Source of the DNA: Octopus vulgaris
Taxonomy: Eukaryota
Direction of reading: 5' to 3'
Length of the DNA stretch: 64,000 nucleotides
Assembly: GCA_951406725.2 (NCBI GenBank)
Contig: OX597843.1
Coordinates: forward strand, 15,066,001 to 15,130,000
Numbering within the stretch: the stretch's first letter is position 1; every line of letters begins with the position of its first letter. The position numbers and the translations under genes were made by a program. Below are positions 34,566 through 55,904 of this stretch, piece after piece. The notes under the pieces were generated by a model. The model ran no database searches. It was not told the origin of the DNA and saw only the letters and a program-made list of their open reading frames with translations.

Positions 34566-34834
34566 TTCCAAATATATCCCCTAACCAAATTATTCTCCCC
34601 TCTAACACTACATTTTTTTTATTAAGCAAAACCCCTTAAGAGGACATAAGTTTGGGGTTCTGAAATTACAACTAAATTTTGGGGTCCCTGCATATTTAAT
34701 AAGGTCTACATTTTCTCCTACAGAAGCGCTGAATTGTCTACACCCCAGTGCCACCCGAGCACTTCCAGCTGCAGTCCTGTTTTTATTTTTGTTCTTTGGT
34801 TTACCGAAGTTATAAAACCATCCTCTTATATTCA

Positions 34835-36530
34835 TGGCATGTAAAAAGCACCATCCGAACGTGGTCGATGCCAGCACCTCCTGTCTGGCCCCTGTGCCGG
34901 TGGCATGTAAAAAGCACCATCCAAACGTGGTCGATGCCAGCACCTCCTGTCTGGCCCCTGTGCCGGTGGCATGTAAAAAGCACCATCCGAACGTGGTCGA
35001 TGCCAGCACCTCCTGTCTGGACCCTGTGCCGGTGGCATGTAAAAAGCACCATCCGAATGTGGTCGATGCCAGCACCTCCTGTCTGGCCCCTGTGCCGGTG
35101 GCATGTAAAAAGCACCATCCGAACGTGGTCGATGCCAGCACCTCCTGTCTGGCCCCTGTGCCGGTGGCATGTAAAAAGCACCATCCGAACGTGGTCGATG
35201 CCAGCACCTCCTGTCTGGCCCCTGTGCCGGTGGCATGTAAAAAGCACCATCCGAACGTGGTCGATGCCAGCACCTCCTGTCTGGCCCCTGTGCCGGTGGC
35301 ATGTAAAAAGCACCATCCGAACGTGGTCGATGCCAGCACCTCCTGTCTGGCCCCTGTGCCGGTGGCATGTAAAAAGCACCATCCGAACGTGGTCGATGCC
35401 AGCACCTCCTGTCTGGACCCTGTGCCGGTGGCATGTAAAAAGCACCATCCGAACGTGGTCGATGCCAGCACCTCCTGTCTGGCCCCTGTGCTGGTGGCAT
35501 GTAAAAAGCACCATCCGAACGTGGTCGATGCCAGCACCTCTTGTCTGGCCCCTGTGCCGGTGGCATGTAAAAAGCACCATCCGAACGTGGTCGATGCCAG
35601 CACCTCCTGTCTGGCCCCTGTGCTGGTGGCATGTAAAAAGCACCATCCGAACGTGGTCGATGCCAGCACCTCCTGTCTGGCCCCTGTGCCGGTGGCATGT
35701 AAAAAGCACCATCCGAACGTGGTCGATGCCAGCACCTCCTGTCTGGCCCCTGTGCCGGTGGCATGTAAAAAGCACCATCCGAACGTGGTCGATGCCAGCA
35801 CCTCCTGTCTGGCCCCTGTGCCGGTGGCATGTAAAAAGCACCATCCGAACGTGGTCGATGCCAGCACCTCCTGTCTGGCCCCTGTGCCGGTGGCATGTAA
35901 AAAGCACCATCCGAACGTGGTCGATGCCAGCACCTCCTGTCTGGCCCCTGTGCCGGTGGCATGTAAAAAGCACCATCCGAACGTGGTCGATGCCAGCACC
36001 TCCTGTCTGGCCCCTGTGCCGGTGGCATGTAAAAAGCACCATCCGAACGTGGTCGATGCCAGCACCTCCTGTCTGGCCCCTGTGCCGGTGGCATGTAAAA
36101 AGCACCATCCGAACGTGGTCGATGCCAGCACCTCCTGTCTGGCCCCTGTGCCGGTGGCATGTAAAAAGCACCATCCGAACGTGGTCGATGCCAGCACCTC
36201 CTGTCTGGCCCCTGTGCCGGTGGCATGTAAAAAGCACCATCCGAACGTGGTCGATGCCAGCACCTCCTGTCTGGCCCCTGTGCCGGTGGCATGTAAAAAG
36301 CACCATCCGAACGTGGTCGATGCCAGCACCTCCTGTCTGGCCCCTGTGCCGGTGGCATGTAAAAAGCACCATCCGAACGTGGTCGTCGATGCCAGCACCT
36401 CCTATCTGGCCCCTGTGCTGGTGGCATGTAAAAAGCACCATCCGAACGTGGTCGATGCCAGCACCTCCTATCTGGCCCCTGTGCTGGTGGCATGTAAAAA
36501 GCACCATCCGAACGTGGTCGATGCCAGCAT
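34835..36530 (+). repeat. 66-bp minisatellite, about 25.5 near-identical copies, derived from the family C 3' UTR module
   Basis: Unit tggcatgtaaaaagcaccatccgaacgtggtcgatgccagcacctcctgtctggcccctgtgccgg, giving 22-aa periodicity in the ORF track. Confidence 0.97.
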
Positions 36531-37937
36531 TGATGAGGCCAATCCGGGCAAGAAAGCACCTCCCACAGGTGGGGCAGAAGTGGGTAGGGGCTGTGCTATT
36601 GGTGCAGGTGGCTCTGGTTCCGCATCTGGCGTTTCTGTTCTGCTGACTGAATCCGTCTCTCCTCGGTTGTCTTTGCTCCTGTGGTGATTGCGCTGCGCCA
36701 GGATGAGCGGTTGGCAGCAAGTGTCTCCCAAGTCTCTGTGCCGATGGAGAAGTCATTGAGAGAGACATTGAGACTGTCCTTGAAGTGCTTCTGCCCTCCG
36801 ATTTTGCGTTTGCCCTGGCTGAGTTCACTATAGAAAAGCTGTTTTGGGATGTGAGTGTCGGACATGCGGGAGACGTGGCCTGCCCATCTCAGCTGGGCCT
36901 TGCGCATGATCGTGATGGTGCTAGGGAGATCTGCCTGCTTCAGAACTTCCGTGTCTGGGACTTTGTCTTGCCAGCAGATGTGAAGGAGGTTCCAAAGACA
37001 CCTGAGGTGGAAGTGGTTTATCTGGTGCTCGTGCCTTCGGTAAGCAGTCCACATCTCGCAGCCATATAGTAGGGTGGTAAGCACGACTGCCCAGTAGACT
37101 TTCAGCTTGGTGTTGAGGCTGATTCCTCTCCGCTCCCAGACTTTCCTTCGCAGTCTCCCAAACGCGCTGCTTGCCTTGGAGATTCTGTTGATGATTTCAG
37201 CACCTATGTTGGCATTGCAGGAGAGAGTTTTCCACCGCTCGTAGGATCCGTCCGTTCACCTTTATCTGAGGCTCATGGTATTGTTTGCCGGGGGCTGGCT
37301 GAAACATCACTTCAGTTTTCTTGACACTGATGGTGAGACCAAAGTTGTCACAGGCTGATGAGAACCTGTCCATCCCAAGCTGCATCTCCTGCTCATCGAT
37401 TGCGTTAAGGGCGCAGTCATCAGCAAAGAGAAAGTCTCTGACGACTGTCTCCCTCACCTTTGTGACGGCCTGCAATCTTCTGGAGTTGAAAAATTTCCCA
37501 TCCGTCCTGTACTTGATGTCAATACCGGACTTGCAGTCCCTGAAGGCGTCGGACAGCATTGCCGAGAACATGATGCTGAACAGTGTTGGGGCCAGGACAC
37601 AGCCCTGCCTGACTCCGTTGGTCACCTGGAAGACTTCAGATGAGTTGCCGTCTTCAAGGACTCTGGCTGTCATTCCGTCGTGGAACTGGCGGACAATTGC
37701 AATAAATTTGCTGGGGCAACCAAATTTTCCCATGACCTTCCAGAGTCCCTCCCGACTGACTGTATCGAAAGCCCTGGTGAGGTCAACAAAGGTCATGCAG
37801 AGGTCAAGGTGCTGCTCCATGCATTTCTCCTGGAGCTGGCGGGCGGCGAATATCATGTCAGTGGTCCCTCGACCCGCGCGGAAGCCACACTGGCTCTCAG
37901 GGAGAAAGCCTTGCTCCAAGTGTTCCAAGTGTTCCAG
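36531..37937 (-). mobile_element. RTE (BovB-like) LINE, RT domain and C-terminus, frameshifted
   Basis: LPESQCGFRAGRGTTDMIF, FVDLTRAFD, GVRQGCVLAP, LFADD, LLYGCE.W, RWAGHV.RM, C-terminal CPTCGRCFLARIGL. Confidence 0.95.
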
Positions 37938-52200: not shown

Positions 52201-52723
52201 CATGCTGATCATCATCATCATCATCATCGTTTAACGTCCGTTTTCCATGCTAGCATGGGTTGGACGGTTCGACCGGGGTCTGGGAAGCCAGAAGGCTGCA
52301 CCAGGCTCCAGTCTGATCTGGCAATGTTTCTACAGCTGGATGCCCTTCCTAACGCCAACCACTCCGCAAGTGTAGTGGGTGCTTTTTACGTACCACCTGC
52401 ACAGGTGCCAGGGGAGGCTGGCAAACGGCCACGATCGGATGGTGCTTTTAACGTGCCACCCAGTTTATAAAAGGTATAAATGCACACACCTGCCAAAGAC
52501 AAACTCCCATGTTGAAATACTACACACTTAGACAGGCTTCTTTCAGTTTCTGTCTGTCAAATCCTCTCACAAGGCTTTGGTCGGCCTGGGGCTATGGTAG
52601 AAGACACTAGCCAAAGGTGCCAAGCAGTGGGACTGAACCTGGAACCATGCAGTAGGGAAGCAAGCTTCTTACCTCAGCCAGTAGTCACATTTATGCCAAT
52701 ATTAAATGAGTTATAATCTAGAG

Positions 52724-52943
52724 CAGTGGTTTTCAACCAGGGTTCCGCGGAACCTTAGGGTTCCGCCAGTACAGTCCAGGGGTTCCGCAAGAAGTTACAA
52801 AACTGCTTAAATCAGCAGTAATTTTTAATTCTCCTGTTTCAGATATTTTTGCATAAGACAATTAAATTATTGCACAGGGGTTCCTCGAACCAGGGGAATG
52901 TTTCCTTGGGGTTCCACTCCAGCAAAAAGTTTGAAAAGCACTG
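52724..52943. mobile_element. hAT (Charlie-like) MITE
   Basis: TIRs CAGTGGTTTTCAACC / TTTGAAAAGCACTG and an 8-bp target duplication ATCTAGAG / ATCTAGAT. Confidence 0.9.
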
Positions 52944-52991
52944 ATCTAGATATAGGCATGAGGGAACAATTCTGCCAGCTCCCTGCCTTAG

Positions 52992-53097
52992 AAAATATGG
53001 AATGCTTCACAAGTTTGCATGTCAGCCTTGCACAGGGGCCATGCTAATCTTTTCTGCATCGTTCCAATTTTAGTCTATGAACTGCTGAAGCAAGTAT
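52992..53097 (-). pseudogene. U6: Full-length U6 snRNA pseudogene
   Basis: Minus strand atacttgcttcagcag..ctaaaattggaacgatgcagaaaagattagcatggcccctgtgcaaggctgacatgcaaacttgtgaagcattccatatttt. The essential ACAGAGA box is mutated to GCAGAAA, with many CpG-type transitions. Confidence 0.92.
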
Positions 53098-53303: not shown

Positions 53304-53490
53304 ACTCAGAGTTTCATGTTCCTGTTTGTCGGACAGTTTCGTTAATAAAACTGTCCGATGAATGGGAACGTGAAACTCTGAGTAACAGCTTTTGTTAAAT
53401 TTCTGCTGCTTCTAAATAAAGCATATTACTCTACCTCTGGAATTTGAGTACTCTTTTTGCCACCTTGTTTCAAATTTATGCGCTTACTCT

Positions 53491-53492
<2 letters not shown>
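53301..53492. mobile_element. Family H fold-back hammerhead element (reverse orientation, one arm shortened), in (TA)n
   Basis: The + strand reads AAAACUGU-CCGAUGA-AUG-GGAA-CGU-GAAACUCUGAGUA-ACAGCUUUU (53347-53393), mirrored at 53301-53339. Confidence 0.78.
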
Positions 53493-53536
<44 letters not shown>

Positions 53537-53558
53537 CATTGATCATACAACAAACATC

Positions 53559-53645
<87 letters not shown>

Positions 53646-53654
53646 TATATATAT

Positions 53655-53685
<31 letters not shown>

Positions 53686-54732
53686 ATGTGAAATAGAAAG
53701 ATGAATAATCTTGTTGCAGATTAATCAAAAGTTTAATCGATACCTTGGTAGCAAAAATCACAGCAGAAGACAGCTCGGTTGGAGGTACAACCATATGGTG
53801 TTGCAACCGTGCGTTGGTGCGGATAATTGAATTTTAATATTATTAGTGAATTTAAGAAATGGAGTTGAACGAAGATTGAACAGAAATCGTTTTATTTCAT
53901 TTTATACTTATCTTGCCTATAAATAATACCTGCACCCGGGTACACTACTTATATGAAAATAGTCCCTCGGTAATAAATTCTGAAATAGCCTTTAAGAGAA
54001 ATATGATTAACCATTGCAAGGGGAATTACTCCTGTGAGATGAATGGGGCTTTGTTTTTGACGACGGGGGGTTTCTTTGTCAAGGCATGATTAGACGAACA
54101 CACGCACACATAAAATATATTTTTTTTCTGCCACCCGACGGATTCTACAGCATTGACCATTGGGTAGAGCTGTTTACCAACTGACAGCCGCGCGATCAAA
54201 CGCACACACGTACACATAAAATGTTTTCTACCCCTTGACGGATTTCTCAGCACTGACCAGAATGTAGCGCTGCTTATCAACTAGCGCCCGCACACATATA
54301 TAGAACAGTAAACACACACATGTCTCTAAGTAGATTTCTCTTGCCCCATATAATACATCTAATATTCTTTAAATAGTCAGAACTTTACTCTCGGTCACAA
54401 AGAACATCTACACACCCCGTACCCTCACCCACCGGAATGACCGTTGCCTGACCCGTTAAAATCTTCAACGCCCCCACCACCAGTTTTCAACATACACTGA
54501 TAAACAGTTTGGCCATGGGCTCTTAGGAGCCTAGTTCGATTTGTTTTGCTCCACCTCTGTTCTGTTTTTGTTTTTTCCAACGGATTTCCTATTTCTTCCT
54601 GAAGAGAAAGGCACAATATGGTCTCATTATTCAATCGGAATTTGGTAAATTGTGCCTTTCGAAACACGTGTAGAATGAAATAAAACGATTTCTGTTCAAT
54701 CTTCGTTCAACTCCATTTCTTAAATTCACTAA

Positions 54733-54740
<8 letters not shown>
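53686..54740. mobile_element. Non-coding Penelope-like element with a 70-bp inverted repeat and intact HHR, in (TA)n
   Basis: 53835-53904 is the reverse complement of 54671-54740, with (TA)n on both flanks. Confidence 0.75.
54590..54682 (+). ncRNA. Canonical type I hammerhead ribozyme
   Basis: UAUUUCUUC-CUGAAGA-GAAAGGCACAAU(31-nt loop)AUUGUGCCUUUC-GAAAC-ACGU-GUA|GAAUGAAAUA. Perfect core, 12-bp stem II, palindromic stem III, 9-bp stem I with one bulge. Confidence 0.88.
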
Positions 54741-54769
<29 letters not shown>

Positions 54770-55180: not shown

Positions 55181-55904
55181 GATAGTATTTTGCTCAAGAG
55201 CACAACACACCACCCGGTCTCGGAATTGAAACCGCAATCTCATGATCATGAGTGCAACACCCTAACCATTAGACCAGTGAAACAGATTGTCTTTTTTGTG
55301 TGTTTGTTAGTTTTGACCTCAAGTTGTGCCTGCAACCAACTTGTTTGTCCCAGGAAGGGAATGACTGCTTTTGTTCATTGTACAGTTTGAGTTTGGTGGT
55401 TGGAGGTGGTGGTGGTGGTGGGCTGCTTATGATGTTGATTTCATTATGTGTATCATCATCATCATCATCACCATCATCATCATCGTTTAGCATCTGCTTT
55501 CCATGCTGGCATGGGTTGGACGGTTCAACTGGGGTCTGGGAAGCCAGGAGGCTGCACCAGGCTCCAGTCAGATCTGGCAGTGTTTCTGCAGCTGGATGCC
55601 CTTCCTAACGCCAACCACTCTGAGAGTGTAGTGGGTGCTTTTTACATGCCAGGCGAGGCTGGCAAAAGTTCACAATTGGATGGTGCTTTTTATGTGCCAC
55701 CGGCACGGAGGCCAGGCGAGGCTGGCAATGGCCACGATCAGATGGTGCTTTTTAAGTGGCACTGGTACGGAGGCCAGTTGGAGCGGTGCTGGCAACGGCC
55801 ATGTTCGGATGGTTCTCTTATGTGCCACCGACACAATTTCCATTGATGTTGAATCGATTTCGATTTTGATTTTGATTTTGATGTGTATATATATATATAT
55901 ATAT

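Follow-up and report, generated by a model that had tools for sequence, protein, structure and literature searches.

A hammerhead-bearing inverted pair from a Penelope-like element in Octopus vulgaris and the breakpoint pattern of its family

The inverted pair and its ribozyme

Positions 53686-54740 of the window (the whole 64,000-nt stretch of O. vulgaris DNA analysed here) are a 5'-truncated head-to-head pair derived from an autonomous Penelope-like element (PLE) and lying within (TA)n (Table 1). Element positions are given relative to the predicted hammerhead cut, with G54673 as +1 and A54672 as 0.

Table 1. Features of the inverted pair and its flanks (window coordinates)
Feature	Position	Strand	Remarks
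Left target flank, (TA)n-rich	53487-53685		sequence
Left arm: inverted pLTR piece, element +220 to +2	53686-53901	-	long tailed 3' end at 53686
Tail, ~150 nt, spanning the short (+66) to long (+220) 3' ends	53686-53834	-
Right arm: element -770 to +68	53902-54740	+	end of the ORF; 3' UTR/pLTR with intact hammerhead; short 3' end
End of RT-GIY-YIG ORF, YTYLAYK and stop	53902-53926	+
Diverged pair of 90-nt repeats (73% alike) of the 3' UTR	54088-54282	+	overlap the CpG-rich interior
Putative capped transcription start, A at -166, initiator-like context	54506	+	breakpoint cliff and extra G
DPE-like pentamer, +28..+32 from the putative start	54533-54537	+	varies: not kept in all subfamilies
Type I hammerhead, long stem II, palindromic 2-bp stem III	54590-54682	+	predicted cut 54672/54673
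Right flank, (TA)n	54741-54767

Positions 53835-53901 are the exact reverse complement of 54674-54740 (67 nt, 0 mismatches). The initial annotation had described an inverted copy at 53835-53904 which starts near the predicted cut and carries a longer tail; the copy, its start (at +2) and its tail all proved real, and only the right edge had been drawn 3 nt too far (the copy ends at 53901). The 5' breakpoint of the left arm thus lies one base inside the predicted 3' cleavage product, G+1 being absent, and its tail runs 149 nt beyond the right-arm copy, to 53686, all of it genuine family sequence. The arms meet bluntly at 53901/53902 and asymmetrically (+2 / -770), and the right arm itself crosses the predicted cut site on its way to -770.

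The hammerhead, with predicted cleavage after A54672, was already recognised in the initial annotation and was confirmed here: it has a full type I core (CUGAAGA at 54599-54605, GAAA at 54661-54664 and a GUA triplet ending at A54672) and three stems, namely stem I (54590-54598/54673-54682, with a single bulge), a 12-bp stem II (54606-54617/54649-54660) and a 2-bp stem III with a palindromic loop. It is the single match to a type I descriptor on either strand of the window, and it was missed by Rfam at the gathering threshold, where a U6 copy was the sole match. Its constrained fold (-19.1 kcal/mol) comes within 1.1 kcal/mol of the minimum free energy (-20.2). Among 12 related sequences both partners are altered in five pairs, of which stem II contributes four, and 86.5% of the hammerhead cells are paired as against 36-50% when the structure is slid, though related sequences can exceed shuffles without selection. 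The cofold of the dimer is predicted at -12.3 kcal/mol. Given the weak, palindromic 2-bp stem III, cutting is predicted to be inefficient and to depend on a dimer or a protein (PMC4209133), which would be consistent with cleaved templates being rare. Most copies have a mismatched pair in stem II, which a G at 54611 restores in the window; the same G occurs in a duplicated pair of close relatives, and more diverged subfamilies use a swapped pair at this position. The two relatives (L003/L004, or L067/L068), located on different contigs, have ~8.8 kb of flank in common at 99% identity, which may be a segmental duplication or a haplotig.

Other repeats lie nearby. On the minus strand, 52991-53097 is a full-length copy of U6 snRNA with about a dozen substitutions (87.6 bits with Rfam), likely a pseudogene. 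At 52724-52944 an element of ~220 nt is bounded by short terminal inverted repeats and flanked by an 8-bp duplication that is nearly perfect; we take it to resemble a hAT-type MITE. Two 90%-identical copies of a dispersed repeat, beginning with (ATC)n and containing internal repeats of ~62 nt, are found at 52201-52460 and 55457-55820, and a tandem expansion of a similar unit occupies ~34800-36900.

The family and its insertions

The 22-nt family anchor has 2913 exact matches in the 2.8-Gb genome, that is, ~2,900 arms; at least 102 family matches were obtained from the 40 scored of 2118 candidates. In locus L062, a 908-aa ORF precedes the shared UTR. Judged by its YRDD and C-terminal VYQC..YVG motifs, the protein is a reverse transcriptase (RT) with a C-terminal GIY-YIG endonuclease; its Atlas neighbours belong in part to RVT_1, while Pfam gave no match and a PDB sequence search also failed to place the ORF. 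The family thus combines an RT and GIY-YIG ORF, a pLTR in inverted or partial-tandem arrangement with a tail, and a hammerhead within the pLTR, as Penelope-like (EN+) elements do.

Diagnostics of the Hydra clade are listed by Craig et al. (2021; PMC8557442). Among the best 120 homologues of the ORF, RWK was present in 87 (at the aligned place), DKT in 110, a CxCx5C-like motif in 108 and CCHH in none. The ORF of L062 has DKT at residue 126 and RWL at residue 41, where the Hydra clade has RWK. CCHH is absent from the family ORF, CNLC..E is present, and CPH occurs in 65 of 69 translations, overlapping loci included. Of the CxCx5C linker finger, which the family has lost, one Cys is left in the eight commonest variants listed; the motif is degenerate at residues ~745-775 of the L062 ORF, which also contains long S/N/G-rich insertions. 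By these motifs the family appears Hydra-like.

One partial tandem (L102) was found. In it, as well as in one contig joint (5588 to 1890 on L062), the +220 end runs via 35 nt into ORF-proximal sequence, and +1..+220 would therefore also be 5' UTR. Four contig sets of guessed RNA status cover the element; contigs of this kind cannot show starts, ends or level and bear nothing on expression.

The rules of insertion were derived from an unbiased sample consisting of 88 of the first 89 listed anchor rows, taken in genomic order and blind to 5' ends, which comprised 62 insertions with 107 arms. The arms have their 3' ends at ~+66 or at +220, (TA)n adjoins 105 of the 107, and 39 of the 40 inverted pairs combine one long-tail with one short 3' end. 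The arrangement follows the tail rule known for PLEs (PMC8557442), which has been linked to two RT start sites (PMC11167929), except that the tail measures ~150 nt instead of 30-40 bp. In two insertions (L053 and L077) the inverted arms stand ~200-350 nt apart, and the unrelated sequence between them may be host RNA or DNA that was captured. Sister PLE families (L227-L246) have the post-ribozyme sequence, the two-end rule and TA targeting in common with this family, and their hammerheads covary; they could serve as an independent repeat of the breakpoint test.

Breakpoints and the template RNA

According to the initial annotation, the inverted piece is a cDNA that ran to a ribozyme-made 5' end, and breakpoints were to be plotted against the GUA site across the family. 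The view of the arms as retroelement pieces that derive from cDNA was upheld, and the breakpoints are indeed non-random, but they do not cluster mainly at the cut site: among the 94 sampled arms reaching +7, 91 read past -3 and three end at -3..+7, while 11 end at -20..-4 and 13 at -174..-160. (Several long-range breakpoints in this sample, near -475, are alignment artefacts.) Genome-wide, a breakpoint pattern of four non-matching bases, ten free bases and a 20-nt anchor was counted in 11-nt windows. The raw matches (capture-corrected in brackets) numbered 6 (22) at -190..-180, 104 (393) at -170..-160, 29 (84) at -48..-38, 58 (152) at -15..-5 and 66 (178) at -3..+7; the control at +16..+26 gave 43, a figure inflated by sister families (24-28 of the 43 rows), and the 15-19 rows of the family itself correspond to ~56 after capture correction.

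The dominant feature of this map is a 19-fold cliff at -166 (A54506), which is the modal end, found at 29 of 94 junctions, one of them an indel artefact (90 loci of the 104 matches). The A is preceded by an extra G in 19 of 28 junctions, and in 11 of the 12 where that base falls in filler. An extra G at full-length L1 junctions has been attributed to the cap (PMC11702581). From the cliff and the extra G together, we infer that the usual template of transposition is a capped, uncleaved sense RNA starting at A54506, although terminal-transferase activity of the RT at an uncapped end could also supply the G. The pentamer at 54533-54537 was called DPE-like on the basis of RGWYV, which we take to be the DPE consensus. 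With its initiator- and DPE-like surroundings, the putative start resembles the promoter of Penelope, which is internal to the pLTR (PMC2377424). A conserved short hairpin at 54516-54533, just 3' of the putative start, is the microhomology partner in many recurrent junctions. A sigma-70 scan gave chance-level results and is irrelevant here.

As to the CpG-rich interior at 54180-54300, originally proposed as the promoter, its CpG o/e of 1.36 (9 CpG) compares with 0.93 for the whole element, 0.94 for the family ORF and 0.49 for the window; since the whole element is undepleted in CpG, the interior is only mildly special. The 90-nt repeats located there are partly deleted in a large subfamily. 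With the start predicted at 54506, the promoter is more likely to lie there than at 54180-54300, and the original proposal is not supported.

We favour, with a probability of about three in four, the reading that the locus is one insertion of two 5'-truncated arms in (TA)n, each of them likely a nick-primed cDNA of mostly capped, uncleaved sense RNA. By analogy with Poseidon of Anolis (PMC11167929), this would be twin target-primed reverse transcription, in which the endonuclease nicks both (TA)n strands, the RT begins internally at +220 on one strand and at ~+66 on the other, each cDNA extends toward the 5' end of the RNA, and the two cDNA 3' ends are joined head to head, bluntly or via microhomology. 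The cDNAs primed in the 5' pLTR copy would stop at the cap (-166) or earlier, and those primed in the 3' pLTR copy would enter the ORF, as the right arm would have done (to -770) across an uncut or re-ligated ribozyme. With its weak stem III, the hammerhead would cut a minority of the templates.

The end of the left arm at +2 would then reflect either an ordinary premature stop at the ribozyme fold or a cleaved template. That the arm is an ordinary truncation, or an RT pause at the three-way junction of the hammerhead, and coincides with the cut site by chance is a reading for which the odds seem to us about even. Ends are raised over the whole -20..+7 zone, short arms occur in every length (10 of the 107 sampled arms end at +51..+220), and recurrent junctions defined by microhomology shape local peaks; what such a stop leaves unaccounted for is a significant bump at a pre-specified position, together with pairs both of whose arms end there with filler between them. 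The bump was measured in a cut-site set of 65 arms, from which four indel artefacts and one internal deletion were removed; the remaining 60 include some imperfect rows (a direct junction at +1, a local duplication at +6 and, at +2, two arms whose filler is duplicated). Of these, 27 end at 0..+2, which are 3 of the 12 positions and were specified beforehand (p=0.0006, capture being slightly different at two edge positions). Counting paired arms once leaves 23 of 56 (p=0.006), and a hand tally of one locus set alone places 26 of 52 arms at -1..+2 (p=0.04). The window copy is absent from the pattern matches, and these counts are therefore independent of it.

On these grounds cleaved templates probably exist as a class of 1-3% of arms, compared with ~13% at the cap. 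The original idea of a cDNA running to a ribozyme-made 5' end accordingly fails for the family at large and survives for a minority class, to which the left arm may belong. That this arm is itself such a footprint of self-cleavage in vivo we consider possible, at somewhat less than an even chance. It ends at +2, where the bump has its mode (11 of 60 arms). In four insertions (L178, L188, L192 and L135) both arms end at +1/+2, two of them with filler of 10 and 32 nt, which mirrors the pairs at -166. The partner arm ends within 3 nt in 10 of 44 insertions; the corresponding figure for the -15..-5 control is 1 of 29 (Fisher p=0.04). In the 28-arm subfamily of the window four of the 25 other arms end at 0..+5. 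Nevertheless, the enrichment relative to flanking positions is only about 2-fold (52-59% of arms at 0..+2), a comparable bump is seen at -10..-8 (15 of 45 arms at -9/-8; 20 vs 26, p=1.0), a sharp upstream cliff like that at -166 is absent, and the 11-nt window just upstream holds nearly as many raw matches as the cut-site window. The left arm moreover is without G+1, and for the element studied in PMC11167929 RNA-seq reads ending at its own cut site were not found. The coincidence of the arm end with the cut site in this single copy is real, but taken alone it is weak evidence. Avoidance of -166..0 by the partners of cut-site arms was considered as a test for a common RNA and dropped, the control class being similarly skewed in a hand count.

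It appears improbable that the inverted arms have a different origin, whether in a fold-back that primed its own synthesis on an antisense or first-strand template, or in an RNA circle formed when a transcript was cut twice and ligated. Antisense self-priming was favoured for head-to-head junctions in PMC3846280, and circles were proposed in PMC4209133; re-ligated circular RNA would permit the cut site to be read through, junctions linked by palindromes occur in sister families, and the near-symmetric junctions of 8 of the 40 inverted pairs are also obtainable by fold-back. The junction in the window, however, is blunt and asymmetric, the different 3' ends of nearly all pairs are poorly explained by the copying of one cDNA, and the cliff with its extra G presupposes a linear sense RNA whose 5' end lies at -166; a circle has no such end. 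The capped, uncleaved sense template that we prefer agrees with the in vitro result for Poseidon, where unprocessed RNA was the main template (PMC11167929), and speaks against the antisense self-priming of PMC3846280. As for readings of the locus as a retrozyme, a MITE or a segmental duplication, they were rejected in view of the RT ORF upstream in full copies and of the stereotyped arm ends.

Relation to known elements

The role of Penelope hammerheads has been stated to be unclear (PMC8557442), and whether inverted copies derive from a sense or an antisense template was left open in PMC3846280; with the octopus family both can be put to the test on genomic sequence alone. The -166 cliff with its extra G argues for a sense RNA that is capped and uncleaved, whose occasional cleavage is suggested by the small +1/+2 class. 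Tentatively, and with rather less than even confidence, thousands of inverted pairs may record two kinds of 5' end of the template RNA, a capped start (~13% of arms) and a ribozyme-made start (+1/+2, ~1-3%). If so, genomic sequence would provide evidence for in vivo cutting of the transposition template by a Penelope hammerhead, and inverted pLTRs would be products of twin priming on sense RNA, at two sites separated by 150 nt, and not of antisense fold-back. Among the papers listed in our literature search, none maps PLE breakpoints to a cap or a hammerhead site, as judged by titles and the article text consulted.

Non-LTR retrozymes (10.64898/2026.07.22.740005) likewise carry a type I hammerhead in PLE-derived non-coding sequence. 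They are described as tandem non-coding arrays, whereas the octopus locus is an inverted pair with one hammerhead and a coding PLE parent; head-to-tail non-coding units with a hammerhead in each were not found at it.

Penelope of Drosophila virilis (Schostak et al., 2008; PMC2377424) shares with the octopus family a transcript start inside the upstream pLTR, an Inr/DPE-type promoter and partial tandems bordered by inverted repeats whose size varies. The octopus element belongs to another clade, its tail is ~150 nt long compared with 34 bp, and, as a further difference, no intron was detected in its 5' UTR.

Poseidon of Anolis (PAc; Frangieh et al., 2024; PMC11167929) is similar in having two internal RT starts that define the tail, extension of both strands, an AT-rich target, a hammerhead upstream of the start sites and unprocessed RNA as the main template. 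Poseidon has a short tail and an ORF that begins inside the hammerhead, whereas in the octopus family the hammerhead and both start sites, ~150 nt apart, would lie upstream of the ATG; the evidence is biochemical for Poseidon and genomic here.

In coding and structural features the family resembles the C-terminal-EN PLEs of the Hydra clade as described in PMC8557442, with which it has in common a single RT-then-GIY-YIG ORF with DKT, no CCHH and CxxC and CxH near the C terminus, a canonical hammerhead, (TA)n targeting and pLTRs in tandem and inverted structures. It differs from that clade in having RWL for RWK, in the loss of the linker finger kept in 108 of 120 homologues, and in size, its protein of 908 aa with S/N/G-rich insertions being encoded by a unit of ~3.7 kb as against under 3 kb. 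Here a Hydra-like element targets (TA)n even though it has lost the linker finger to which a role in such targeting had been proposed. The octopus family represents an unusual variant within an already known type of element, and its family-wide record of RNA ends is more valuable than the single-copy coincidence.
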